Below are positions 2,143 to 51,804 of a stretch of 64,000 nucleotides of DNA, one piece after another (position 1 is the stretch's first letter; every line of letters starts with the position of its first letter). Position numbers and translations under genes: made by a program. The notes beneath the pieces were generated by a model. It was not told the DNA's origin and made no database searches. It worked only from the letters and a program-made list of their open reading frames with translations. Source of the DNA: a virus; IMG/VR virus record IMGVR_UViG_3300045988_134583, positions 9,820-73,819 of that record, one strand, 5' to 3'.

Positions 2143-3021
2143 TCACCCTTCCCTATCTTCTTCGCTTCCCCACTTCCTGTACACGGTATCGCTGACGGAG
2201 ATATCCAGCCCGAAACGCTCTTTGAATGACATAATCTCCACTACATCGTCCAGTATGGGCTGACGGTCTTTGAGCATGTCCGGGGACATGTCGCCCTTGT
2301 GCAACATTGTCGGAAGTCCTGCACGGTTGGAAACTGCCTTATCCGCTATGGTATTGGCCTTAATGTAGTCCTGCCTTGTTAGTTCTCTTGTTCCCTGGAT
2401 CTCGTCACGCATCTTACGCATGGCTTCCTTCTGTTGCTCCTTGTCCATCATGCGGAAAACCTCAAAGCCTTCAAAGCCGCTCTTTTGTCGCAGGGTACGG
2501 AGCATGTTGTACACCCAGCGTCGGAACACCTTTGCTTCCTTCTTGCGGCTCATGAAGATAGCATCGTATACGGCAAGCTCGTTGGCGATCAAAAGCTCCT
2601 GCTGACCGCCGGAAGTAGGAATTAGCGCAGTAGACAATTCCGGGGCTTTATCCTCGCTCCCCTCGTTTGAAACGAGGGAAGATATACATTTTCTATCGTA
2701 TTTATACAGAGGAGTTTTTCTATCGCCGTCTGTACTTTTTGCAAGGGTATCGTTTGAAACGATACCCTTTATGCACTTCTTGTTATTTTTATTCTCATCA
2801 TTTTTTACCAGTTCGCCAAGCTTTTCCGAAAGGGTATTGTTTGAAACAATACCCTTTATGCATCCATATTCATCTGAAAGCCTATGTGCAACATTGTAAG
2901 CTTGCAACCCCAGTGCGTCGCATATGTCCTTCAACACGCCCCACCATTCTCCGTCCTTCCACACAAACCGAATGTTATGACCTGCCCAGTTTTCAACCTT
3001 AATTTCTGCCTTTGCCCTCAT
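2143..3021 (-). CDS. Bro-N domain protein with triplicated 29-aa insert
   Basis: GHNIRFVWKDGEWWGVLKDICDALG ... ELAVYDAIFMSRKKEAKVFRRWVYNML matches Bro-N. Start moved to the ATG at 3021 behind a GGAGG RBS. Internal CIKGIVSN(N/D)TL / CISSLVSNEG repeats. Confidence 0.75.
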   Translation of the reverse strand: MRAKAEIKVENWAGHNIRFVWKDGEWWGVLKDICDALGLQAYNVAHRLSDEYGCIKGIVSNNTLSEKLGELVKNDENKNNKKCIKGIVSNDTLAKSTDGDRKTPLYKYDRKCISSLVSNEGSEDKAPELSTALIPTSGGQQELLIANELAVYDAIFMSRKKEAKVFRRWVYNMLRTLRQKSGFEGFEVFRMMDKEQQKEAMRKMRDEIQGTRELTRQDYIKANTIADKAVSNRAGLPTMLHKGDMSPDMLKDRQPILDDVVEIMSFKERFGLDISVSDTVYRKWGSEEDREG

Positions 3022-3268
3022 GTGAGACCTCCATGTGTATCGATTGGATGTGATGCCCGAAAGCATAACAATCATTAGAACAAAAAAGCCGGGATTTGGA
3101 AACTGAAACGCCCTGGTTCACAATTTTTCTACCTTTACAGCGAACACATTTTCGGTTATGCCGTTAATAGCGGGATGTACATAGTACGAAATCGTACTAA
3201 AGAGCAGCCTTACGCATCGAAAACTGCAAAAATTAGTATAAGAGAGGGATAAAACCTCTCTTTTTCTA

Positions 3269-5675: not shown

Positions 5676-5966
5676 ATGAATCTTATCGAAACACAGGAAA
5701 GAACCTTCAAAGAGTTTAAGGACGCAGTTTCTCAGGCCAACGAAAAAGTTGATAAAATCTACAGCAAGGGCGTTGACACCATTGATCTGGTGCTGAACAT
5801 CGAAACCGCATTGCGTTTCCTTGCAACGGACAAACTAAGGGACATGGACGAAGATGTATTCCGCATGGTCAGTCTGGTTCTGACAGGGGCAATGCGCATC
5901 GAGGAAGAACTACAGGGAATTGTAGATGCGGTCTATGACGTGGGAAGGAGCCTGACCAATGAGTAG
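5676..5966 (+). CDS. hypothetical protein (96 aa)
   Basis: ORF with AAGAAAGGGA RBS. Its 3' end overlaps the next start (translational coupling). Confidence 0.55.
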   Translation: MNLIETQERTFKEFKDAVSQANEKVDKIYSKGVDTIDLVLNIETALRFLATDKLRDMDEDVFRMVSLVLTGAMRIEEELQGIVDAVYDVGRSLTNE

Positions 5967-6948
5967 GGCTTTAACAATCTTCAACCGGGACATAATCCCC
6001 GTCTACACCACCAACGAAGGTAAGCAGATAGTTATAGGCCGAGAGCTGCATAGATGCTTGCACAGCAAATACCAATACTTAGACTGGTTCAAGAAGATGT
6101 GCTCTTATGGTTTTGTTGAAGGGCAAGACTACTTCCCCTACATCCCCTCTTCCGAAACAGATGGAAATGAATACAAAAGTATTTTTTCAGAAAAAACTGA
6201 AAAAATCAAAAACCCCGAAGAACAGGAAAAAATTGGACGTGGCCGTCCTTCCCGAGACCACTATCTTACCTTCGATATGGCAAAGCACATTGCCATGATC
6301 CAGCGCACTCCCGAGGGATTTGCAATCCGTCAAAAGCTGTTGGAGCTGGAAGAACGTGTGCGTAACCAGATGGTCGCCCTTCCGCAAGACCTTCCCTCCG
6401 CATTGCGCAGACTGGCCGACACGGAAGAACAGAATCAGGCTCTCCGGTGCGCCAACAACCGCCTCCATTCCGAAGTGCAGACGATGGAACACGAGATCGG
6501 CCTGATGGTAGATAAAGCGGACTTCTGCGACACCCTGCAAAACACGACGAACCTTTTCAGCATGAAGGAGCTGTCCGTGTACCTGACGCAGAACGGCGTA
6601 CCACTGGGCAGAACGCGGCTGATGGAACAGCTTCGTAAGGACGGCTACTTATGCAAGGGTGGGCAGTACCGCAACTCCCCGTCGCAGTTCTCTATCGACA
6701 TGGGTCTGCTGATCGGGAGCATGACCACCTATAAGGAAGGGCGCAAGGTAATCCACTACACTTCCCCGAAGGCTACGGCAAAGGGCTTTGAATACTTCCT
6801 GCGCAAGTACGGAGCCGTCAAGGAGCATCACGCCGAGGACATTGCGAAGCTAAGAGCCGAAGCGGTCAAGGGATTGCCCGAGCCGAACAAGAAGCTGCTG
6901 CCTAAGCCGGAACCCCCGAAGAACCTTTACGGAAGCATCGACTTTTAG
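5959..6948 (+). CDS. phage antirepressor (AntA N-terminal + KilAC C-terminal type)
   Basis: N-terminus IIPVYTTNEGKQIVIGRELHRCLHSKYQYLDWFKKM is AntA-like. C-terminus FSMKELSVYLTQNGVPLGRTRLMEQLRKDGYL is KilA-C/ANT-like. Confidence 0.8.
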   Translation: MSRALTIFNRDIIPVYTTNEGKQIVIGRELHRCLHSKYQYLDWFKKMCSYGFVEGQDYFPYIPSSETDGNEYKSIFSEKTEKIKNPEEQEKIGRGRPSRDHYLTFDMAKHIAMIQRTPEGFAIRQKLLELEERVRNQMVALPQDLPSALRRLADTEEQNQALRCANNRLHSEVQTMEHEIGLMVDKADFCDTLQNTTNLFSMKELSVYLTQNGVPLGRTRLMEQLRKDGYLCKGGQYRNSPSQFSIDMGLLIGSMTTYKEGRKVIHYTSPKATAKGFEYFLRKYGAVKEHHAEDIAKLRAEAVKGLPEPNKKLLPKPEPPKNLYGSIDF

Positions 6949-7504: not shown

Positions 7505-8434
7505 ATGGACATTATCGAATTGCGGGACAGCTACATTGCATCCCTGAAAGCCGACAAGGCGCAGACTACGATTGAAGGGTATGCGCGGACGATCAATTTG
7601 TTCCTTGCTTGGGCGGGAGACAAAAACGCAAAGCTCAATACCGCAACGATAATGGGCTGGCGCTCCCACCTTGCCGAGGAAGGCGACGGCGTTACGACGA
7701 TCTCCCTGTACATGCAGCACATGCGGTACTGGTGCGAGTACATCAGCGCTATACAGGATGGATTTGTTATGCCTGATTTCGGCATTTTGAACCCAGATAA
7801 GCGCAGAGTGTCCGTAGCTAAGAAAAAGCCGTACAAGCACGTTCTGGGGCCTTCCGAGGTGATTGCTATTCTCAGTGCAGACAGGCCGAGCAAATGCAGC
7901 ACGGAGACATGGCCGAGGAATAAAGCGATCCTGACGTTATTCTTGACCGGCTCCATGCGCAATGCAGAGCTATGTTCTATCCGTCCCTGCGATCTGGACT
8001 GGGAATCGCATCAAATCCTTTTGGAGAATACGAAGGGCGGTATGCCCCGATATGCCGCCTTCCCCGCCATTGCGCAAAAGGCGGTAACGGAGTATCTGGA
8101 AAGCGGATACAGACCTAAAACGTTGAAGGATACAGACCCTTTGTTTGTCTCTTATCCGCAAGGGAATCCCTTCTGCTGGGGTGCGTTTGACCGGGATGTT
8201 TTAAGCTCCCTTGTAATGCGTCTGGTGCGCCTTATAACTGGCATTGATGGCATCCGCTCCCATGCGTTGAGACACGCTTCCGCATCTTTTATGCTGACGC
8301 ACGATGTGCCGTTGGATGAGATTCAGCAGGCGTTGGGGCACAGCAATATAAACACTACAATGCGCTATGCTCAGAGGATCGTCAACAAGGGAGAAGTACG
8401 AAAGAGTGTGTTCGATGCAATAGCCGCAGTATGA
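7505..8434 (+). CDS. tyrosine recombinase (XerC/D-like phage integrase family)
   Basis: N-terminal SAM-like core-binding region. C-terminus ...IRSHALRHASASFMLTHDVPLDEIQQALGHSNINTTMRYA carries the R..H..R..Y catalytic signature. Confidence 0.85.
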   Translation: MDIIELRDSYIASLKADKAQTTIEGYARTINLFLAWAGDKNAKLNTATIMGWRSHLAEEGDGVTTISLYMQHMRYWCEYISAIQDGFVMPDFGILNPDKRRVSVAKKKPYKHVLGPSEVIAILSADRPSKCSTETWPRNKAILTLFLTGSMRNAELCSIRPCDLDWESHQILLENTKGGMPRYAAFPAIAQKAVTEYLESGYRPKTLKDTDPLFVSYPQGNPFCWGAFDRDVLSSLVMRLVRLITGIDGIRSHALRHASASFMLTHDVPLDEIQQALGHSNINTTMRYAQRIVNKGEVRKSVFDAIAAV

Positions 8435-9678: not shown

Positions 9679-10461
9679 TCAGGCATCGATCATCTGCGTG
9701 TATTTTGGAATGTTGGAAATGTAGGCTTCTTGCCCCTTGTATAGGATTTTATACCAGCCCGTCTTTTCGTGCAAACCGAGATACGGGAACGTGTCTCCCC
9801 TGTGTGCGGTTCCCAGCCTCTTGCTGGAAGCATATCCGTCTGCACGAACGTTGACGGAACCGCCTACTACTTTTACCTTCTTCTCGCAGACAACAGGTGG
9901 AGTATCCGGGGCTTCCGGCTCTACGGGCTTTATATCCCCCGTTATTTCGTCCTTAAACACCAGAGGTATTCCCCATTTGTGCCAGTACCGTTCTTTGAAT
10001 TTAACACGCACTACGCCAGTCCTGCGGCCTTCTGCATGAATACACTCCGTATCGGAGATCATGTACCCTACATGGGATACACGACCGTTTGCATTTTCCC
10101 GGAAGAGCCAGTACCCTTTCTTCGGTGCTTCGGTTTTCGGCACCATAGCGCAGCGGGAAGCCATAGTATTGGAGTTTACATCCATCTTGTACAGCTTTTT
10201 CAGGTTATACAGCCAATATACTCCCAAGCCGGAACAGTCATAGGCATACAAAACAGTGGCTCCTGCATCGAATTTCTTCTTGCAGAACTTTTTTGCAGCC
10301 TCCGCATAGGTCATATTTGGATATCCGCCCGTGCGTTTTTCGCATTTATCTACCACCTGTTCATAGTTTTCAGGGGTAAGTTTCGTATGCTGCCCGCCCC
10401 AGAGATATGGTTGCCCAACCTGTTCTTTCAAATACTTTATAAAGTCGGTAAGGTTACTCAT
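9679..10461 (-). CDS. endolysin: NlpC/P60-type peptidase + C-terminal SH3-like domain
   Basis: PYLWGG...YAYDCSGLGVYWLY...SHVGYM fits the NlpC/P60 Cys-His pattern. C-terminus VNVRADGYASSKRLGTAHRGDTFPYLG...WYKILYKGQEAYI is SH3b-like. Start set at the ATG behind GGAGGTGG. Confidence 0.8.
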   Translation of the reverse strand: MSNLTDFIKYLKEQVGQPYLWGGQHTKLTPENYEQVVDKCEKRTGGYPNMTYAEAAKKFCKKKFDAGATVLYAYDCSGLGVYWLYNLKKLYKMDVNSNTMASRCAMVPKTEAPKKGYWLFRENANGRVSHVGYMISDTECIHAEGRRTGVVRVKFKERYWHKWGIPLVFKDEITGDIKPVEPEAPDTPPVVCEKKVKVVGGSVNVRADGYASSKRLGTAHRGDTFPYLGLHEKTGWYKILYKGQEAYISNIPKYTQMIDA

Positions 10462-27492: not shown

Positions 27493-27566
27493 TGGCAGGG
27501 ATGGAAGGTATCGAACCTTCTGCATCCGGGTCAAAACCGGATATTCTCCCTTTGAACTACATCCCT
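27493..27566 (-). tRNA. tRNA-Gln (anticodon UUG), CCA encoded
   Basis: Manual cloverleaf: acceptor AGGGATG/CATCCCT, D stem GTTC/GAAT, anticodon stem TCCGG/CCGGA with loop TTTTGAC, T arm GAAGG-TTCGATA-CCTTC, then GCCA. Confidence 0.85.
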
Positions 27567-33084: not shown

Positions 33085-34488
33085 TTACTTGCAGTTACGG
33101 GCAATAAGGCCGTCTACGCCGTCGCCCTCGTTGTTGTCGGTAGAGTTGCCCCGGATGGAATCCAGCCAGGAGTGGACGGAGTTTTCGGCCTTCTTACGGT
33201 CGGAGCGGATCTTGCTCTCGTGGTCGAAAATCTTGGACTTTACGACCTGACAAGCCTTCTCGTCGCCGCAGAACTCGCCCTTCTCGTTCTCGCACTCACT
33301 GTATTTATCTTCCTCGGCGTCCTTCTTGACGTCCTCCACTTCCTCGTCGGAGATGGGGTTCTCTGCATCCTCGTTGTACTTGGCAACAAGGGCATTGATA
33401 GCAGCAATGACGGAATTGCGCCGACGGGCGATCTCCTTGCGTTTCAGTTCCGTAGCTTCCTTCTCGGCGGAATTAGCGCGTTCCTCTGCCTGCTTCTGAG
33501 CGGTCTCAGCGGCAGAAGCCTTGTCGGTAAGCTCCTTAACCAGGGCGTCATAACCGGCCAGCACATCCACATGGATGGATTCTCCGTTTTCCATGACGGC
33601 CTCGGAGTTCAGGGCAACGGGCTTGATACGGGATTCAATGATATTGTCGCCGTCGTCAGCCTGCCGGGTGTACTCATACAGGCAGTTGTCCTTCTTGGAC
33701 AGAAGGCCAAAGCTCATGCCATCCTCGGAGTTACCCACGATCACATAGCCGGGGAACTTCTCACGCATGGCGTCAAGCTGTGCTTTATTAAAAGCCATCT
33801 TGCTTTTGTTTCCTTTCTCTTGGTTTTTTGCGGCTTCTTCTTGGTAGGCGGCGACCTTGAGCTTGAAATCTTTCAGATCGTCTGCCAGGGACAAGGTGCG
33901 GATATGCGCGCCTGCAACGGCGGGAGTTACGCCCAGCCCCAGAATGGTGGTGCCCAAAATCTGGTAGCGGTCGAAAACTTCTACGTCGTTTTCTTTCCTT
34001 ATATCTTCCACAAGCGTCTCGATGCTTACATCCATGCCTCTGGCTCCCTGTTCCGTCAGCAAGGCGGTAAGCTCCTGGGCGTAATAGCTCCAAATGGTGC
34101 CCTCGCCCACAATCCATTGCACGTTGTCCTTGTCTACAAGCTTTATATCTTCATCGGATTTGAACCATCCGACGATTCTTTCTGCTTTAGCGTCCATAAA
34201 GGAGGCGTATTCATTGCCCCGTTTATCCCGCTTCACCTTATAGTTGTGCCCGTCGCCCACCTTATCCGGGTTGGGATAGGCCACAAGGATGGGCGTATCC
34301 ACGAACAGGGAACGATGCTCGGAAAGGTTCTTGTACTGCCATCCGTTCCGGTTTACTTCCCCATTCAGCAGCCATACCTCAACCCGGTACTGAAACGGAT
34401 TTTCCTGTGCGAGAACCCGCAGCTTGCCGGGGAAGGATCGGTAGGCTTGGCCGCCGTCTACGGTCTTGAATTTACTCATCTTCTTCAT
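33085..34488 (-). CDS. putative prohead protease / scaffold fusion
   Basis: 467 aa. Globular N-terminal half (LLNGEVNRNGWQYK...), coiled-coil C-terminal half (AETAQKQAEERANSAEKEATELKRKE). Called from position. Confidence 0.4.
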   Translation of the reverse strand: MKKMSKFKTVDGGQAYRSFPGKLRVLAQENPFQYRVEVWLLNGEVNRNGWQYKNLSEHRSLFVDTPILVAYPNPDKVGDGHNYKVKRDKRGNEYASFMDAKAERIVGWFKSDEDIKLVDKDNVQWIVGEGTIWSYYAQELTALLTEQGARGMDVSIETLVEDIRKENDVEVFDRYQILGTTILGLGVTPAVAGAHIRTLSLADDLKDFKLKVAAYQEEAAKNQEKGNKSKMAFNKAQLDAMREKFPGYVIVGNSEDGMSFGLLSKKDNCLYEYTRQADDGDNIIESRIKPVALNSEAVMENGESIHVDVLAGYDALVKELTDKASAAETAQKQAEERANSAEKEATELKRKEIARRRNSVIAAINALVAKYNEDAENPISDEEVEDVKKDAEEDKYSECENEKGEFCGDEKACQVVKSKIFDHESKIRSDRKKAENSVHSWLDSIRGNSTDNNEGDGVDGLIARNCK

Positions 34489-35002
34489 CCTCCATCAGGT
34501 GAAGCACCCAGTTATCAAAGGAGGAAGCGTTTACGCCTTTGTCCCACATATTCCACGCTTGAAGAATCTTCGTATACAGCCGAGAATTTGCAAGCATGAA
34601 CTCTTCTGTTTTCAGCGCCATGGGACGGAAATCCGCATTGTCGGTAGCCCTGTGAAAAGCTTCCAGCGCTTCCTGATACTCATCCATAACGCCTATAACG
34701 ATCTCAAACGCCTTATCCACGTCTCCGATCTCTTCCACCAACTCCGGAGTAGACGGGTAAATACCCATCAAATGGCGCTCATGCAAAAGATCGATAAACT
34801 GATCGAAAAACTGAGGGTACAGGTGACTGATCTTGTGGATGAATTTGGAGGTGTTTGGCAACGCCGCCTCGATATAGAACCACTCTTGCACGGTGTCAAG
34901 GAAGCGGTTCACTCGCTGGGCTGCGTCCACAACTCCCCTTGCAGGCTCTTTTAAGGGCGCATACTTTTGATTTTTATAGTCGAAAATGTCTCTTGCTTTC
35001 AT
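34472..35002 (-). CDS. hypothetical helical protein (176 aa)
   Basis: Start set at MKARDIF behind GGAGAGGG. Acidic C-terminus. Confidence 0.5.
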   Translation of the reverse strand: MKARDIFDYKNQKYAPLKEPARGVVDAAQRVNRFLDTVQEWFYIEAALPNTSKFIHKISHLYPQFFDQFIDLLHERHLMGIYPSTPELVEEIGDVDKAFEIVIGVMDEYQEALEAFHRATDNADFRPMALKTEEFMLANSRLYTKILQAWNMWDKGVNASSFDNWVLHLMEDEEDE

Positions 35003-35119
35003 GTGTGTCCCTCTCCCAAAAAGAAAAGGGCAAAGAGCCTTTTGCTGCTCTCTGCCCCACTTGGCCTTGCCGCTTCCCACTTGAAGCGGCGCATGTTTTG
35101 CTTCGATTTTCCATGCGTT

Positions 35120-35195
35120 TGGCGGGAACGGTAGGTTTCGAACCTACAGCCTTCCGGTTAACAGCCGGATGCTCTACCTGTTGAGCTACGAACCC
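35120..35195 (-). tRNA. tRNA-Asn (anticodon GUU), CCA encoded, with two U-U mismatches in acceptor stem
   Basis: GGGTTCG-TA-GCTC-AACAGGTA-GAGC-A-TCCGG-CTGTTAA-CCGGA-AGGCT-GTAGG-TTCGAAA-CCTAC-CGTTCCC-G-CCA. Acceptor positions 4:69 and 5:68 are T/T. Confidence 0.8.
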
Positions 35196-35742
35196 ATGTA
35201 TGCAAACGGTTACTCACGCACTAAAAAAATACTCGATGCCACAGAACCCCACAGCGCCTTCATGTTACCTGAAAAGGTGTTGCGCTTTCACCGTTAAGCA
35301 TCAAAAACAATGCTTTAGGGGAACGTATGCGTGACGGCTTTTAACCATTGTCCAGTAGCCGAGGCCCAGCATCGGATGGGGCATCCCTCGGCGGTACTAC
35401 CGGAAGCACCCTGGACGATTTACGACAGCTTGCCGTGGAGAACGATTGTTCCGCCGTGTTCTCCGTCCGGCGACCCTCCTTCGCGGTTGGGTTCGCGCCT
35501 GCCGTCAGGACAGCGGATGCGCTTGCCAGTGCTCATCCTCACGAGCCTAATTCGTGCGCATTTTCAGCGTCTGCCCTCGAATCCCTTTGACGGCTTTGGA
35601 ATATTGACAGCAGATACTTCAATATGGAGTTTCTGCCGATAAACTACATCTACGATCTCGTTATTTCGTATCTTCCTGCGTATGAGCACATCGTCTCCGT
35701 CCGCAAGAATACGCTCTATGGCCCTGGTCTCCCGCTCTCCGA
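35196..35742 (-). ncRNA. candidate large structured ncRNA (ROOL/GOLLD-like context)
   Basis: A ~550-nt gap in an otherwise gap-free operon. Many nested helices, including a G-U pair that only works on the minus strand. Abuts a tRNA. The only ORFs are unconvincing. Confidence 0.45.
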
Positions 35743-36528
35743 TCAACCTACGACCTCCAACAGTTTTTTGTTTCCGGCCAGCATGATCTGCTGTTTCAGG
35801 TTTGCCGTGGGTGTAAGCAGCTTTCTGGCCGCATAGGAGGAATACCCCAGCCACGACGTAGAAACGATCAATCGCCACGAAACAACGCTCACACGGTTAT
35901 TCTGCTTGTCCACCATGATCTTACCCACCGGATAATTCATGGGCTTGTGGGTATGCCCCACCACAAGGCAGTCTATACCGTCAATCGCCATCCCGAAGCG
36001 CTCTGCCTTTGTAGCCGACGCACCGGTGTAAATGGAAGAACCGTTCCCGTGCGTAATTGCAAAAGTGTATGTCGGGTTTCTAAGGCCGTTGCTCTCTTTC
36101 CTGCCAAATTGGAGTTTCAGGAAGGCAATGTCCTCCCTGTATATGTCCTCCAAATCCAGTTTGGCCATGATGTCGTAGGTGATATCGTTGTCCACTTCCC
36201 GCAGGTTTCGAGCTTCGTGGTTGCCGGATACGGCGCACAGGATTCGCTCCCTAATGGGCGTTAGGTTACGCACCATCCGGGACTTCTGTTCCTTCGGGCG
36301 CATCCGTTCCTCGTAAACGTTCGTGACGGAACTTTTGATGCCGTTGTTTACAAGGTCTCCTACCAGGACAATGTAAGTGTTCTTGCTATCCAGCAAATCC
36401 CGGCAGAATTTATCCCAGTCTTTTTCGTAGCACTCCTGCGCCCCTAAATGGACATCCGACACGGGAATGATAGTGATCCCCTCGTTGGTCGGGAAATGGC
36501 GGATTATCATCTCAAAATTGTCTCTCAC
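35743..36528 (-). CDS. calcineurin-like metallophosphoesterase
   Basis: IIPVSDVHLG ... VLVGDLVNNG ... SGNHE ... VVGHTHKP are the canonical MPE metal-binding motifs. Confidence 0.8.
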   Translation of the reverse strand: MRDNFEMIIRHFPTNEGITIIPVSDVHLGAQECYEKDWDKFCRDLLDSKNTYIVLVGDLVNNGIKSSVTNVYEERMRPKEQKSRMVRNLTPIRERILCAVSGNHEARNLREVDNDITYDIMAKLDLEDIYREDIAFLKLQFGRKESNGLRNPTYTFAITHGNGSSIYTGASATKAERFGMAIDGIDCLVVGHTHKPMNYPVGKIMVDKQNNRVSVVSWRLIVSTSWLGYSSYAARKLLTPTANLKQQIMLAGNKKLLEVVG

Positions 36529-36543
36529 TTGACCGCCTTTCGG

Positions 36544-38262
36544 TTACATATCCATATCCCCGTAGGAATCCGCATCGTCCTCTGCCCCCTCGCTTTGGGG
36601 CGTATCGTTGGACGGTCTGCCGGGCGACGGGTTTGCTCCGCTGTCCGGGTTCTTGGCGGAATAAGAGGATATGAGGGGAATCCGCTTGCTGAGCAGGTTG
36701 GACTTCTCAATAGCGCTGGAAATTGAGATATCTTCCAGCAGAGAATGTCCTCTGAGCGCGTCGTAGCGGAGCGTTTCTATCAACAGCCCGAGTGTCATGC
36801 CGTCTTTGGCGGCTTTAAGATCGTCCTTTTCGGAGAAGATATCCCCGAACATCTTGAAGCCCCACTCGTATTTCAGGTTCAGCGTCCCGTACAGATAGTT
36901 AATCATGCGCTCAAAGCCCATGTAAACGCACTGGCCGAACTTTGCCGCAATGGCAGCGGCCACATTGACCATGCCTACTCGTGGTTCTGCGCTTGCGCTG
37001 ATAATGCCGATACCGGATTTCTGAATCAGGTAGGAGTACCCGGCGGCGGAAATATTCTCCGCATTAGGCGCTTCGGCAAGACTATTCAGCTTCATGTCCT
37101 TAAATGGTGCTGCATATATGCCGATACCGGAAGTATTATTCTGGGCCATCATGTTATACCACAAGGCCAGATACACGTCCCGCACCGCCGGACTGATCTT
37201 TATGGGATCTGCCTGCGTAGGCGTGTTTGTGTTAATTGTCTCCATCTCGCCCAGCACACAGGCCACAAGGGGGTTTTGCAGGATACTGAGCTGCACTGCC
37301 TCGTAGTCCGCCTGCTGTATGGCGGAAATGAGAAGCCCCGTAAACGGGGAGATCTCATCCATGGTGGTATCGTCTATCTCAAACGTCCAGCACTCCGTAG
37401 GCGGCAGTGTGACCCAGTAGAACCACGTTCCGTTCTGTTCGTACACGTCTGGGTTTCCTGCCAGCGCTCTGCGTTTCTTCTCCGCTTCGATCTTTTCAAG
37501 GTCGAAATCACAGGAGCGTTTGGAAGAATATACGATCTTGCTTCCGGGCTTTTTGATGAAGCTCTGCATGTCCCGGACATACGGTTCAAACAGATCCCCG
37601 AACTGCCGGTAATCGGTTCCCGGCTGTAAGAAGTACATCATGTCAAACATGAGGGTGTACTTGGAGATGTTATTGAATCCTACAATCTTTATCCAGTCCT
37701 GTGGAAGCCTTTGCAGATAGGCATACTCGCAGGTGTTATGGGCTTTATCTATCTTCTTCCGAAGGTAATAATGCACCTTGCCGCTTATCCCGCACTCACC
37801 CATTACCCGGTGCGCGGCGGCTCTTACGTCCATCTTCCCGCAAATCTTTTCCAGAAGCCGCCATTCCCGCAGGAGATCATCCTTGGCAATGGAGCTTTCC
37901 GAATCCAGATACAGAGGGTAATTGTACCAGCGGTAGGTGGGGACGTCCTGATAGGTCTTTATGATGTTGAAGATGGGATAGGCGCTGTACCGCACCCACT
38001 CCATAGCCTGTCTTAAAGGCTTTTCGCTGTTATCCGGGTTATCAAGATAGCTGGCTACCTGGTTTTTATCGTATTTGAAAGCCCGGGAAGAGATCCCCTT
38101 GATGCGGTTATTCTGCATGTAGGGGTTAAAGGTCATGGCCGCTCCCAATCCGGTTCTGGAAAAGGCGGACAGCACACCTTCGGGAGAAATATTCCCGTAC
38201 CGCTCCATTAACTGGCGATAGTGCTCAGATACGGGCGGTTTCCCCTGTTTCTGTTCTCCCAT
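36544..38262 (-). CDS. putative portal protein
   Basis: 572 aa. Second gene after the large terminase, with an acidic C-terminal tail. Start set at MGEQKQ behind GGAGAAAGAG. Confidence 0.6.
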   Translation of the reverse strand: MGEQKQGKPPVSEHYRQLMERYGNISPEGVLSAFSRTGLGAAMTFNPYMQNNRIKGISSRAFKYDKNQVASYLDNPDNSEKPLRQAMEWVRYSAYPIFNIIKTYQDVPTYRWYNYPLYLDSESSIAKDDLLREWRLLEKICGKMDVRAAAHRVMGECGISGKVHYYLRKKIDKAHNTCEYAYLQRLPQDWIKIVGFNNISKYTLMFDMMYFLQPGTDYRQFGDLFEPYVRDMQSFIKKPGSKIVYSSKRSCDFDLEKIEAEKKRRALAGNPDVYEQNGTWFYWVTLPPTECWTFEIDDTTMDEISPFTGLLISAIQQADYEAVQLSILQNPLVACVLGEMETINTNTPTQADPIKISPAVRDVYLALWYNMMAQNNTSGIGIYAAPFKDMKLNSLAEAPNAENISAAGYSYLIQKSGIGIISASAEPRVGMVNVAAAIAAKFGQCVYMGFERMINYLYGTLNLKYEWGFKMFGDIFSEKDDLKAAKDGMTLGLLIETLRYDALRGHSLLEDISISSAIEKSNLLSKRIPLISSYSAKNPDSGANPSPGRPSNDTPQSEGAEDDADSYGDMDM

Positions 38263-38602
38263 TCTCTTTCTCCTGTTCTGCTTTAAGCTCACGCTCAAAC
38301 TCATCTAAAAAGTCGTGGGTAAGCTTTTCTATTTCATTTTCGTGGCGCTTGGCTTCCTCGTGCGCAATAGTGCCGATGCAGTCTTTGAGCCACTTCCAAT
38401 CTTCGTCCTTAAAATGCCCCGCAGCATCCGAATTAGAGATCAGGACGCATGGAAGCTCGGGTTCATTCTCGGTGAAAACAAGTACATACTTGGGTGTGAT
38501 CCGGTAAAACCGCTGTCTCAGCGCATACCCTATGGATTCCTGCGTCATACGAAGGCCGTACACCTTTTTGGTTTCGGGCTTCTTCACTCTTTTTGCCGTC
38601 AC
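38225..38602 (-). CDS. hypothetical protein (125 aa)
   Basis: ATGA start/stop overlap with the terminase large subunit. Confidence 0.5.
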   Translation of the reverse strand: MTAKRVKKPETKKVYGLRMTQESIGYALRQRFYRITPKYVLVFTENEPELPCVLISNSDAAGHFKDEDWKWLKDCIGTIAHEEAKRHENEIEKLTHDFLDEFERELKAEQEKENGRTETGETARI

Positions 38603-49046: not shown

Positions 49047-49271
49047 TCAGTCCCATTCAGACACACATTTGACGGTTATGCATTCGTCACAGCCTACCAC
49101 ATCCCCGAAGTCGTTTTCGTACAGGCGCTCCGGGAGATTATTGCCGCAGACCGGGCAGCACACACGCTTCTTCTTACTGTCTCTCCATTCCTCCGGGGTC
49201 ATTCCGGTACGCTCCATAAGGGCAATATCGGGATGATCTGGGAACATAGGATCGTTTGCTTTGTAACTCAT
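49047..49271 (-). CDS. small zinc-ribbon protein (74 aa)
   Basis: ATGA overlap with the sigma factor stop. CCPVCG...GCDEC. Confidence 0.45.
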   Translation of the reverse strand: MSYKANDPMFPDHPDIALMERTGMTPEEWRDSKKKRVCCPVCGNNLPERLYENDFGDVVGCDECITVKCVSEWD

Positions 49272-50080
49272 GCCGCATAACTCCTGTAACCACGCATGAA
49301 GTAGCAGAGGTAATTCAACGCTTCCTGATCTTTCATTCCAACCCATGTGTGAGACATTTTCAGCTTCTTCCCAATCTCCCGCATAGGGATATTAAGACAG
49401 TAGTGCATGTAAACAATCTTCTTGCAATCTTCGGTAAGGTGTTTAAGGGAGTTTTCCAGATCGACCCGCAGATTGGAATAGTCCTCGAAGGGAGCGTCAG
49501 ATGCGAGGGTATCCATAATGGTTTTCACGCCTTCCCGGTCATTGCAGATAGGAGCGTCCAGATAGGAAACGCCGACGTAGGAGGAAATGAGCAGATAGTA
49601 ATCGTACTCAGACATTCCCATCTCATGAGCCACGGCCTCGTTAGCGGTTTTGGCATCGCCCTCTTTCAGCAGCGTGGAGAATCGCTTGATTGCCTTACGG
49701 GCTTTGGCTCTGTCGTGCTCCGGAATATGCAGCTGAGCGCAGTTACGCTCGTAAACGGTGAACTCACCCTTGATCTTGTAATAGGCGAAGGTGGAGAATT
49801 TAACGGAAGAATCCAAACTGAACTGGTCTACCGCCTTGCAAAGCCCCATGCACCCGGTCTGGATGCAATCTTCCCAATCGGGAGTACAGCTGCCGTAGTG
49901 GTCGTTTATATACTTGGCTACGAGGCGCATGTTCCCTTCGATGCACTTTTCTCTGGCCTGATCGTCCCCGGCGTGTGCGAGGCGGATAAGGCGCATGGAT
50001 TCTTCGTTGGAGATAGAAGGATAATCTTTCAGGTCGATAAAGAACCTGTTTTCCATTTCGCGGTACTTACTCTTGCACAT
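49268..50080 (-). CDS. sigma-70 family RNA polymerase sigma factor
   Basis: Region 2: NMRLVAKYINDHY...EDCIQTGCMGLCKAVDQFSLDSSVKFSTFAYYKIKGE. Region 4: LTEDCKKIVYMHYCLNIPMREIGKKLKMSHTWV. Confidence 0.75.
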   Translation of the reverse strand: MCKSKYREMENRFFIDLKDYPSISNEESMRLIRLAHAGDDQAREKCIEGNMRLVAKYINDHYGSCTPDWEDCIQTGCMGLCKAVDQFSLDSSVKFSTFAYYKIKGEFTVYERNCAQLHIPEHDRAKARKAIKRFSTLLKEGDAKTANEAVAHEMGMSEYDYYLLISSYVGVSYLDAPICNDREGVKTIMDTLASDAPFEDYSNLRVDLENSLKHLTEDCKKIVYMHYCLNIPMREIGKKLKMSHTWVGMKDQEALNYLCYFMRGYRSYAA

Positions 50081-50846
50081 ATTGTCTGCTTTCCTCCGTA
50101 GCCAGAAATTTATTGACGAAATAAAGCTGCCCCTTCCCGGTAATGACGGGTGTCTTATTGATGATCGTGCCGGAAGGAGTGGAAACGGTTCTTTCCTTGA
50201 TCTCCATCAATCCAAGCTCCATGCTGTACTGGGTAGGCATGTTCTTTGACTGCCCATCCTTCATAAGGTATCCGCTGCTTCTTAACCAATCGAACATCCG
50301 GGTTCGGCCAATGTCCACGCCGTTCTGACGGATGATCTTTGCCAGATCGCCTACGAGGATGGTGCTTTCGGAAGTACCTACCGAATCAGCGAACAGGACT
50401 TTTGGAGCGTTCTCCTTCTCCCTTGCTTCCAACGCTTTGCGCTTTTCCGTTTCCTCTTTCAGGGCGGTAGCCAGCTTAATGAGGTAGTCGGGGTTGAGCA
50501 GTGCGGCTTCAAGAGTTTCGGGGGTAAGGTAGGCACCGTGTTTACGGATTGTGGGTAACACTTCATCAAATACCCAGCGTTCAAACTTCTCAGCGGTGGG
50601 GAGCTTACTATGCGTTATGAGACGGTATACATCGCCCTCTGCGATAAACAGCATTTCCTGTTCCCCGCCGTTTGTAGGGATACGCCGTTTTAGCGTACCC
50701 TTTGCATGACGAGCAACTGCTTCGTTTGGTCTACTGTATCCGAGCGCCCTCGCAACATCGGATCCGCAGAACAACGGCTTCCCGTTTTCCTCGATCGTTC
50801 GTACTTCACCAAACTGTTCATTACGGAATACTTGCATCTCTTCCAT
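50067..50846 (-). CDS. Bro-N + KilAC-type antirepressor
   Basis: VFRNEQFGEVRTIEENGKPLFCGSDVARALGY...KLPTAEKFERWVFDEVLPTIRKHG. C-terminus ILVGDLAKIIRQNGVDIGRTRMFDWLRSSGYL. Confidence 0.8.
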   Translation of the reverse strand: MEEMQVFRNEQFGEVRTIEENGKPLFCGSDVARALGYSRPNEAVARHAKGTLKRRIPTNGGEQEMLFIAEGDVYRLITHSKLPTAEKFERWVFDEVLPTIRKHGAYLTPETLEAALLNPDYLIKLATALKEETEKRKALEAREKENAPKVLFADSVGTSESTILVGDLAKIIRQNGVDIGRTRMFDWLRSSGYLMKDGQSKNMPTQYSMELGLMEIKERTVSTPSGTIINKTPVITGKGQLYFVNKFLATEESRQYVQE

Positions 50847-51093: not shown

Positions 51094-51182
51094 TGGTTAC
51101 TCCTTTCTCCTTGCACGCTCCAACTCTCGGTTGGAATAGTTACATAATAGCAACTTTAAGTTGGAAAGTCAAGGTGTGTTTT

Positions 51183-51404
51183 ATGTCTTACAGAGAAATT
51201 TTTTCAGAGAGATTTTCCAGTCTGCGCATAAAGAGCGGAATCAGCAGAAGCCAAATGGGAAAAATACTCGGCGTCTCAAACGAAGCAATAAGGCTTATGG
51301 AAATAGGAATGAGAGCGCCCGGCTTCGAAATGTTTCTGGCGATTGCAGACTACTTCAACGTTTCGTTGGACTACTTAACAGGTAGGGATTCCAAAGAAGA
51401 ATAA
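51183..51404 (+). CDS. XRE-family HTH regulator (73 aa)
   Basis: FSSLRIKSGISRSQMGKILGVSNEAIRLMEIGMRAPGFEMFLAIADYFNVSLDYL. Confidence 0.6.
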   Translation: MSYREIFSERFSSLRIKSGISRSQMGKILGVSNEAIRLMEIGMRAPGFEMFLAIADYFNVSLDYLTGRDSKEE

Positions 51405-51405
51405 A

Positions 51406-51681
51406 ATGTTCAAGGATAGGTTTCGCTCGGCTCGTATTTACCGAGGATATACCTTGCAAGAAGTTGCAGACAATTTAGGAATGGCATTAAGGTCGATACA
51501 GAAGTATGAAGGCGGAAACAGAGAGCCGGACTTTTCTACTCTGGTAGAAATTGCGGACTTATTCGATGTCCCTACCGACTTCCTGCTCGAACGGGATGAT
51601 TATCTTCGTTCTCTCGGAGTATCCGTTGATGTACCCCCAGAATGTCCTCTAAGGCGTCCCAAACCTCAAAAGAACCATTGA
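51406..51681 (+). CDS. XRE-family HTH regulator (91 aa)
   Basis: RIYRGYTLQEVADNLGMALRSIQKYEGGNREPDFSTLVEIADLFDVPTDFLL. Its 3' tail overlaps the convergent gene 51572..51793. Confidence 0.6.
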   Translation: MFKDRFRSARIYRGYTLQEVADNLGMALRSIQKYEGGNREPDFSTLVEIADLFDVPTDFLLERDDYLRSLGVSVDVPPECPLRRPKPQKNH

Positions 51682-51793
51682 GGTCTGCATACTCTATCTT
51701 CTGATAGTGACGAAGGGAAAGCCCCAAAGCGTCCGCAATAGACTGCTGGGTGTATCCGTGTTCTTCCCGGGCTTTTTTCAGTTTGCTCCGCAT
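51572..51793 (-). CDS. XRE-family HTH regulator (73 aa)
   Basis: LKKAREEHGYTQQSIADALGLSLRHYQKIE. Confidence 0.6.
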   Translation of the reverse strand: MRSKLKKAREEHGYTQQSIADALGLSLRHYQKIEYADLNGSFEVWDALEDILGVHQRILRENEDNHPVRAGSR

Positions 51794-51804
51794 GACCGGC
51801 CTCC

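Follow-up and report, generated by a model that had tools for sequence, protein, structure and literature searches.

The virus record IMGVR_UViG_3300045988_134583 of IMG/VR carries a non-coding stretch of 368 nucleotides (nt), which we named nc368, between a small gene (orf60) and a gene for tRNA-Asn. We analysed 64,000 nt of this record (positions 9,820 to 73,819). This whole stretch is called the window, and coordinates refer to it unless another locus is named. Comparison of strain copies of the phage indicated that purifying selection holds nc368 nearly constant, and codon analyses suggest that it is not translated. In our preferred reading, which we hold with about even confidence, nc368 is a functional element that is non-coding and specific to this phage species; it is probably an RNA co-transcribed with tRNA-Asn, or else a leader of this tRNA. 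A previous inspection of the DNA letters (the sequence-only reading) had proposed that the whole gap upstream of tRNA-Asn is a large structured RNA resembling ROOL or GOLLD. From this proposal we retain the notion that something functional and non-coding lies beside the tRNA, since among strains the rate of change in nc368 is about 14% of that at fourfold sites and a coding signature is lacking.

Strain diversity and selection

Fourteen strain copies of the region were aligned, and 11 of them span positions 34064..37246. Fourfold degenerate sites were used as yardstick. A caveat is that the phage does not offer a neutral intergenic control, since the portal-terminase "gap" and a 478-nt "gap" both hold genes. 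Here, we found that 11 of the 368 positions of nc368 were variable (3.0%) compared with 81 of the 376 fourfold sites in five flanking genes (21.5%; Fisher p = 8e-16). The variability of nc368 was indistinguishable from that of codon positions 1 and 2 (1.7%) and from that of the tRNA-Asn gene (3.9%). When the window was compared with either of two strain copies (L087, L088), the pairwise synonymous divergence (pS) was 0.16-0.18 for the phosphoesterase, portal and next genes, and the corresponding value for nc368 was 0.016-0.019.

The reduction was proportional among variants of different age. Deep, intermediate and singleton variants numbered 1, 6 and 4 in nc368 and 15, 36 and 30 at the fourfold sites. 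Pairwise distances in nc368 tracked the fourfold distances (r = 0.58) at an overall ratio of 0.14, and within tens of bases on either side of the element diversity was normal again. Positions 35231..35380 were free of variants in all 14 copies, and about 32 variable sites would be expected there at the fourfold-site rate. For 11 uniformly placed variants, the probability of a variant-free run of 150 nt is about 0.04. The low variation relative to fourfold sites, together with its proportional reduction at all depths of the tree, indicates that nc368 is held nearly constant by purifying selection. This is the pattern that selection predicts and that a single recent sweep predicts poorly. Every strain copy examined carried nc368 with unchanged spacing and, among about 30 contigs, there was no strain without it.

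Coding potential of the gap

To judge whether nc368 is translated, we considered codon scores, stop codons and strain variants. The codon scores were non-coding in all six frames, and all six frames contained stop codons of mixed types, so that no single reassignment opens one of them. The strain variants were distributed over the three phases as 4/3/4, without any 3-nt periodicity, and a 1-nt indel segregates among the strains in a U-run of the element. Since there is no coding-like frame, the stops are mixed, the variant phases are even and the indel is tolerated, nc368 is to all appearances not translated. A decayed gene was also considered as origin of the gap and was rejected, since tblastn searches with the open reading frames (ORFs) that lie downstream of the phosphoesterase gene in relatives returned noise only.

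For the other part of the gap the outcome was different. The TTG start codon of orf60 overlaps the stop codon of the upstream gene (GTTGA) and is preceded by a GGAGG motif 7 nt upstream (GGAGG-N7-TTG). The codon-usage score of orf60 exceeds those of 99% of the non-coding frames of the same length in the window, although among real gene segments it ranks in the lowest tenth. When 1.84 billion representatives were searched exhaustively with phmmer, a sole distant relative was obtained (P0123, 55 amino acids (aa), E 6e-4), and a profile search added a second homologue (P0124, 55 aa). These two proteins are encoded at the loci L082 and L083 of two distant phages. In each case the gene comes immediately after that of a phosphoesterase homologue (about 60% identity), and some 110 nt further on there is a 177-aa homologue of the next gene. 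Among the 14 copies, 7 of the 11 variable sites of orf60 are at the third codon position (binomial p ~0.04), and the fourfold diversity is rather low (3 of 27 sites variable). The AlphaFold model consists of a helix and a beta-hairpin (pLDDT 82-91 over residues 1-40), for which no match was found among Pfam, PHROG and PDB folds. The exact protein is indexed in 285 blocks of a public assembly collection. On sequence grounds, orf60 is thus a genuine small gene, which occupies one third of the gap (183 of 547 nt). The statement of the sequence-only reading that the gap contains no convincing ORF has to be corrected accordingly: the 60-aa frame is to be read as a real, conserved and syntenic gene, and the non-coding part comprises 368 nt instead of about 550.

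Direction and extent of transcription

The gap had been put at about 550 nt and the other gaps of the late operon at 0-50 nt, and both estimates were close. Between the metallophosphoesterase gene and tRNA-Asn, which are both on the minus strand, there are 547 nt (35196..35742). This is the largest gap of the structural operon on a crude gene map, on which the other late-operon gaps are mostly below 55 nt. A terminator scan found no terminator between orf60 and tRNA-Asn and one only afterwards (35058..35027). A promoter-like site was not found in the stretch of orf60, nc368 and tRNA-Asn. With neither a promoter-like site nor an internal terminator in this stretch, co-transcription with the late operon and release by RNase P at the tRNA 5' end is the simplest inference. 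According to this scenario, nc368 would be transcribed on the minus strand within a late transcript that covers the genes from the phosphoesterase onwards and ends with the terminator (35027). The gene orf60 is taken as an ordinary small late gene that is translationally coupled to the phosphoesterase gene. Cleavage by RNase P at the 5' end of tRNA-Asn would then create a defined 3' end of nc368. The element might act as RNA, be it as a separate molecule of about 370 nt or as a leader with a function for the tRNA.

One stem (35499-35513) had been noted to agree with transcription in the direction of the operon, and this stem does form a G-U pair on the minus strand and a C-A mismatch on the plus strand. 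Our strain data favour this direction weakly. Six variants fall into helices predicted on the minus strand. In five of them (35529, 35438, 35407, 35230, 35384) the bases can still pair on this strand, and the sixth (35520) breaks a loop-closing pair. The pairing-keeping changes are G-C to G-U, G-U to A-U and A-U to G-U, and several of them correspond to A-C on the plus strand. This strand asymmetry is not significant.

Folding and known RNA families

The helices listed in the sequence-only reading are all present: GGAGAAC/GTTCTCC (35437-43/35458-64), GGATG-ggg-CATCC (35374-86) enclosed by CCGAGG/CCTCGG, CGCG-N8-CGCG (35482-97), and ATGCGC/GCGCAT (35517-22/35556-61) around GCTC-N8-GAGC. The description of the region as helix-rich was not confirmed, since folding energy and stem counts did not go beyond chance. 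On the minus strand, the 547 nt fold with a minimum free energy of -184.8 kcal/mol compared with -179.3 +/- 7.1 kcal/mol for dinucleotide shuffles (z -0.78), and for the plus strand a z of -0.33 was obtained. Sliding windows of 120 nt within the gap gave z-values from -1.5 to +1.8. The sole strongly structured window nearby is 35000-35119, downstream of tRNA-Asn (z -3.46). The gap contained 31, 10 and 3 perfect stems with a minimum length of 5, 6 and 7 bp, respectively, compared with 19 (+/- 5.7), 4.7 and 1.2 in shuffles, and neighbouring coding segments of the same length contained 20-30, 5-10 and 0-3.

To search for known families, we applied the 4227 models of Rfam 15 at gathering thresholds to the whole window and, with permissive filters and E<=10, to positions 34900..36000. 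At gathering thresholds only two tRNAs were detected in the whole window and nothing in the gap. At E<=10 the matches in the smaller region were the tRNA, gut-2 (35047..35093) and a chance HtrA-thermometer match (34997..35034), all of them outside the gap. The proposed likeness to ROOL or GOLLD therefore lacks a covariance-model match at either setting, the 368 nt are shorter than these RNAs, and neither thermodynamics nor covariation lend support. Taken together, four findings of the kind that the sequence-only reading itself had named as refuting speak against the proposal (no covariance-model match, no covariation, apparent translation of one third of the gap, presence in a single lineage), and membership of nc368 in ROOL or GOLLD is rejected.

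Evaluation of the preferred reading and its alternatives

Several observations weigh against the reading that nc368 is a functional element acting as RNA. The minimum free energy of nc368 itself hardly differs from that of dinucleotide shuffles (z -0.60 on the minus strand, -0.27 on the plus strand). RNAalifold predicted 114 pairs from the six nc368 haplotypes, which offer only 11-12 variable sites, and among these pairs there were 0 compensatory and 2 one-sided pairing-keeping changes. No homologue was found outside one phage species. There is no positive structure signal, and nothing in evidence for an ornate fold of nc368. The 5:1 strand asymmetry of the helix variants has a one-sided p of ~0.11. 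Phages without nc368 carry the same type of tRNA-Asn, and thus this tRNA does not need nc368. Recombination cannot bring divergent alleles into an element that is unique to one lineage, as it can into the flanks, and the contrast in diversity is perhaps exaggerated for this reason. Finally, a function at the DNA level would explain the conservation equally well. In such a scenario nc368 would be a cis element conserved as double-stranded DNA, such as a site of terminase recognition or cleavage, a promoter or operator for the phage sigma factor, or another protein-binding platform. We consider this unlikely, in spite of the conservation without structural signal and of the sigma-70-type protein that the phage itself encodes. 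A promoter-like site, repeated motifs, iterons and over-represented k-mers were not found in nc368, and constraint extends to nearly every base including the invariant run of 150 nt, whereas binding-site arrays tend to be patchy. It is 3-6 kb upstream to the terminase genes and the beginning of the structural module, and 27 kb to the integrase. A hint of a physical end or a recurrent breakpoint came from two contigs of the same study. L156, a 58.9-kb ENA contig, ends with an Illumina adapter (L156 2143-2183) that joins position 35105, which is 15 nt past the CCA of the tRNA, and L157 (52 kb) ends inside the tRNA at 35149. The adapter sequence was present in no other fetched locus. With a coverage of 5.7x, the end of L156 may be either a physical terminus of the DNA or a tip of the assembly. 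The adapter was seen once, and other contigs read through the site.

Equal in rank to the DNA element, and in our view similarly improbable, is the explanation that nc368 is a functionless spacer that arrived with the tRNA and that its low diversity is an artefact of population history (recent spread of the cassette or imported flanking alleles). The restriction of the cassette to one species-level lineage and the lack of structural or family signals would fit this explanation. The same is true for the two- to threefold differences in synonymous diversity among the flanking genes, which indicate mosaic histories, and for the low fourfold diversity of orf60. Its difficulty is that deep, intermediate and singleton variants are proportionally reduced and that nc368 variants define the same clades as the flanks (e.g., 35481 for L087 and L088), which a single recent sweep does not predict. 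The return to normal diversity close to both ends and the lack of any nc368-less strain of the species also argue against it. One or more hidden small or recoded protein-coding genes inside nc368 we regard as very improbable. The minus strand does contain mini-ORFs of 40 aa (35420..35542) and of 17 aa (just upstream of tRNA-Asn), and a related phage (L091) carries a suppressor tRNA with a CTA anticodon, which makes recoding conceivable. Apart from the coding tests reported above, three of the four variants in the 40-aa frame fall on the second codon position, the strain-variable indel disrupts the 17-aa frame, and the long plus-strand frames have no match in Pfam or PHROGs. At the bottom of the ranking, with hardly any credibility left, is a single ornate structured RNA of ROOL/GOLLD type that occupies the entire gap of about 550 nt. 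The existence of the listed helices and the context (prophage-type genome of gut Clostridia, tRNA alongside) fit this idea. What counts against it, besides the empty Rfam searches, is that 183 of the 547 nt appear to be a real gene and that the remaining 368 nt are well below the ROOL mean of 581 nt. In addition, the folding energy equals that of shuffled sequences and the stem count that of neighbouring coding DNA. GOLLD RNAs are longer still than ROOL RNAs.

Returning to the functional RNA that we prefer, a more specific version can be formulated. According to this version nc368 would be the sole known representative of a new class of phage non-coding RNA of about 370 nt, which comes from the late transcript, is released by RNase P and has a function of its own, and its setting would parallel that of ROOL and GOLLD with unrelated sequence and fold. 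We put this version forward tentatively and consider it possible but rather doubtful.

Organization of the locus

Table 1. Features between the metallophosphoesterase gene and the next late gene
Feature	Position in the window	Strand	Remarks
Metallophosphoesterase gene, 261 aa	35743..36528	(-)	upstream neighbour; Pfam Metallophos E 1.7e-9, PHROG 7339 E 2.6e-34
orf60, 60 aa	35564..35746	(-)	predicted small gene, TTG start
nc368, 368 nt, non-coding	35196..35563	(-)	strand inferred
Invariant core of nc368, 150 nt	35231..35380	(-)	variant list of 14 copies
tRNA-Asn (GTT), encoded CCA	35120..35195	(-)	ARAGORN; Rfam tRNA 66.3 bits
Hairpin and GCCAAnnGGGGC element	35047..35093	(-)	gut-2-like, below Rfam threshold; kept in L082, L083
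Intrinsic-terminator-like hairpin and T-run	35027..35058	(-)	12 pairs followed by TTTCTTTTTG (terminator scan)
Next late gene, 176 aa	34472..35002	(-)	downstream neighbour; ORF; GGAGAGGG upstream of ATG

The features of the locus are summarized in Table 1. About 117 nt separate tRNA-Asn from the next late gene, and they hold two hairpins and a T-run. Matching gene calls for the next late gene were obtained at eight loci (L148-L155), and homologues of it are located behind the phosphoesterase slot in L003, L004, L082 and L083. A diversity-generating retroelement template or an internal repeat was rejected as an identity of nc368, since the window contains no second copy of it.

Distribution of nc368 and contents of the slot

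There are more than 2000 homologues of the phosphoesterase, and their identity falls from 99% to 66% without intermediates. We collected loci with phosphoesterase homologues from IMG/VR (80) and from GTDB genomes (56) and searched them with blastn and nhmmer. Here, the only loci with nc368 were further copies of this phage species, and the element was absent from 140 other loci carrying a phosphoesterase homologue. Degenerate patterns derived from the stop-free frames of nc368 matched, in IMG/VR, JGI metagenomes and GTDB, only strains with at least 95% translated identity. Among 185,579 species genomes there was no nc368-like sequence, and when GenBank phages were searched with blastn in 'distant' mode, only the tRNA matched. 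Most of the GTDB loci belong to genomes of Oscillospiraceae, Acutalibacteraceae and other Clostridia, and this points to the host range. The phage is a temperate siphovirus of Oscillospirales-type Clostridia, and nc368 is limited to one species-level lineage.

In most relatives another ORF directly follows the phosphoesterase gene. The position after this gene looks like a variable cargo site, with various ORFs of about 100 aa in many relatives (L003-L081, L092-L147). In L003 and L004, for instance, the slot holds an unrelated ORF of 105 aa, which is followed by the homologue of the next gene. Members of the orf60 family occupy the slot only in the window lineage and in L082 and L083. In these two relatives a hairpin-plus-terminator module begins about 25-30 nt behind the orf60 homologue, and the next gene comes after this module. 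In the window lineage, nc368 and tRNA-Asn stand between orf60 and this module. Comparison with the slot contents of L082, L083 and the other relatives thus identifies nc368 and tRNA-Asn as lineage-specific.

The tRNA-Asn gene

The acceptor stem of tRNA-Asn contains two U-U mismatches (pairs 4-69 and 5-68). The same acceptor stem was found in the phage tRNA-Asn genes of L090 (5258-5333) and L091 (248-322), the flanks of which are unrelated. One of these two genes belongs to an array of six tRNAs, and the other lies 264 nt upstream of the tRNA with the CTA anticodon (amber suppressor). Judged by its mismatches and its relatives, this tRNA-Asn looks like a phage-specific type. A strain variant in its anticodon stem keeps pairing as G-U. 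A cassette that travels with the tRNA was considered and rejected because of the unrelated flanks in L090 and L091. An attachment site (attP) of a tRNA-integrating phage was also discarded. The tyrosine integrase gene (7505..8434) is 27 kb off, the tRNA is complete and of the phage tRNA-Asn type, and sequences resembling nc368 were lacking in the 185,579 species genomes. A second tRNA gene of the window, for Gln (TTG; 27493..27566), is wedged between late genes and is practically leaderless, in contrast to the 368 nt before tRNA-Asn.

The hairpin-terminator module

The sequence 35047..35093 scored 34.8 bits with the Rfam model of gut-2 (RF02990; gathering score 39.8, E 2.3e-5). It can be aligned with the corresponding spacer in L082 and in L083, and the common arrangement is a hairpin of 8 bp, the element GCCAAnnGGGGC and a terminator that reuses GGGGC as its 5' arm. 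The whole module occupies 35027..35093 (-) in the window, 4189-4262 in L082 and 3650-3724 in L083. In the alignment 97% of the cells pair and there are two compensatory pairs, which are to be read with the number of sequences (three) and with the shuffling result, in which 53 of 500 shuffles were equal. GGGGC can pair in the stem of the terminator or, alternatively, in a small second hairpin, and these two structures are mutually exclusive. The Rfam gut-2 model did not match L082 or L083 at E<=1, and a model built from the three lineages (R1) detected nothing further in 720 kb of related loci. A literature search for the gut-2 motif retrieved no text on gut-2. The module shares with gut-2 the two-hairpin layout, loops of the AAnUGG type and the GCCAAnnGGGGC element. 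It differs in that its score is below the gathering score and in that the second hairpin shares GGGGC with the terminator stem. Because of the sub-threshold score and because the Rfam model does not recognise L082 and L083, the module is gut-2-like and not a member of gut-2. It is the only element with any family resemblance, and it lies outside the gap, after the tRNA.

Other features of the phage

Elsewhere in the window, genes at 49268..50080, 50067..50846, 2143..3075, 5959..6948 and 7505..8434 encode a sigma-70 region-2 protein, anti-repressors with Bro-N/ANT domains and the tyrosine integrase. The Bro-N/ANT anti-repressors form a group of five or six paralogues. A helix-turn-helix (HTH) repressor region near 51100..51800 differs among the strains, and the 478-nt "gap" mentioned above (51094..51571) contains an HTH gene on the other strand. 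What looks like a gap of 294 nt between the genes for the large terminase and the portal protein is a gene of 125 aa (38225..38602), the strain variants of which are spaced by 3 nt, and in L082 a gene of 118 aa was called at the same position.

Implications and comparison with known systems

As a functional RNA, nc368 would add a case to an unexplained pattern, in which large non-coding RNAs of gut-Firmicutes phages have tRNA genes as neighbours. Should it instead be a DNA site or an artefact of diversity, what remains is an ordinary tRNA cassette that occupies a variable slot of the head module. The phage is abundant, as the 285 assembly blocks with orf60 indicate, and expression and function of nc368 are therefore directly testable. 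There is also a methodological aspect. Folding energy and family searches were blank, and it was the within-species diversity that revealed strong selection. For lineage-restricted elements, constraint at the strain level can flag function where covariation cannot.

ROOL and GOLLD RNAs have been reported near tRNAs and in prophages, and the mean length of ROOL is about 581 nt (Weinberg et al., 2017, PMC5737381). Like them, nc368 appears to be non-coding, measures several hundred nt, adjoins a tRNA with which it is probably co-transcribed, and belongs to a genome of prophage type from gut or rumen Firmicutes. As to context, tRNA-Asn follows directly downstream, and the genome is that of a temperate phage with integrase and repressors. 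The differences concern length (368 vs. about 580 nt), distribution (one phage species vs. several phyla) and architecture, since for nc368 there is no evidence of multistem junctions. Theta ribozymes, which are HDV-like, adjoin tRNAs of gut phages within about 5 nt, and these tRNAs are mostly without an encoded CCA (Kienbeck et al., 2024, PMC10879173). Here we also have a small structured element that is associated with a gut-phage tRNA, but the CCA is encoded, the hairpin module begins 26 nt after it and nc368 is upstream of the tRNA. A theta ribozyme was rejected on the grounds that the spacing of about 5 nt is not observed and that no ribozyme family is among the Rfam matches; the published descriptor was not run. 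A parallel in organization may be drawn to phage morons and tRNA cassettes, with which the locus shares an extra unit between conserved late genes, a cargo that varies among relatives and a terminator that closes the unit. Classical morons consist of a promoter and a protein gene, whereas in this phage no promoter was detected and the cargo consists of a tRNA together with a 368-nt non-coding stretch that is under selection.

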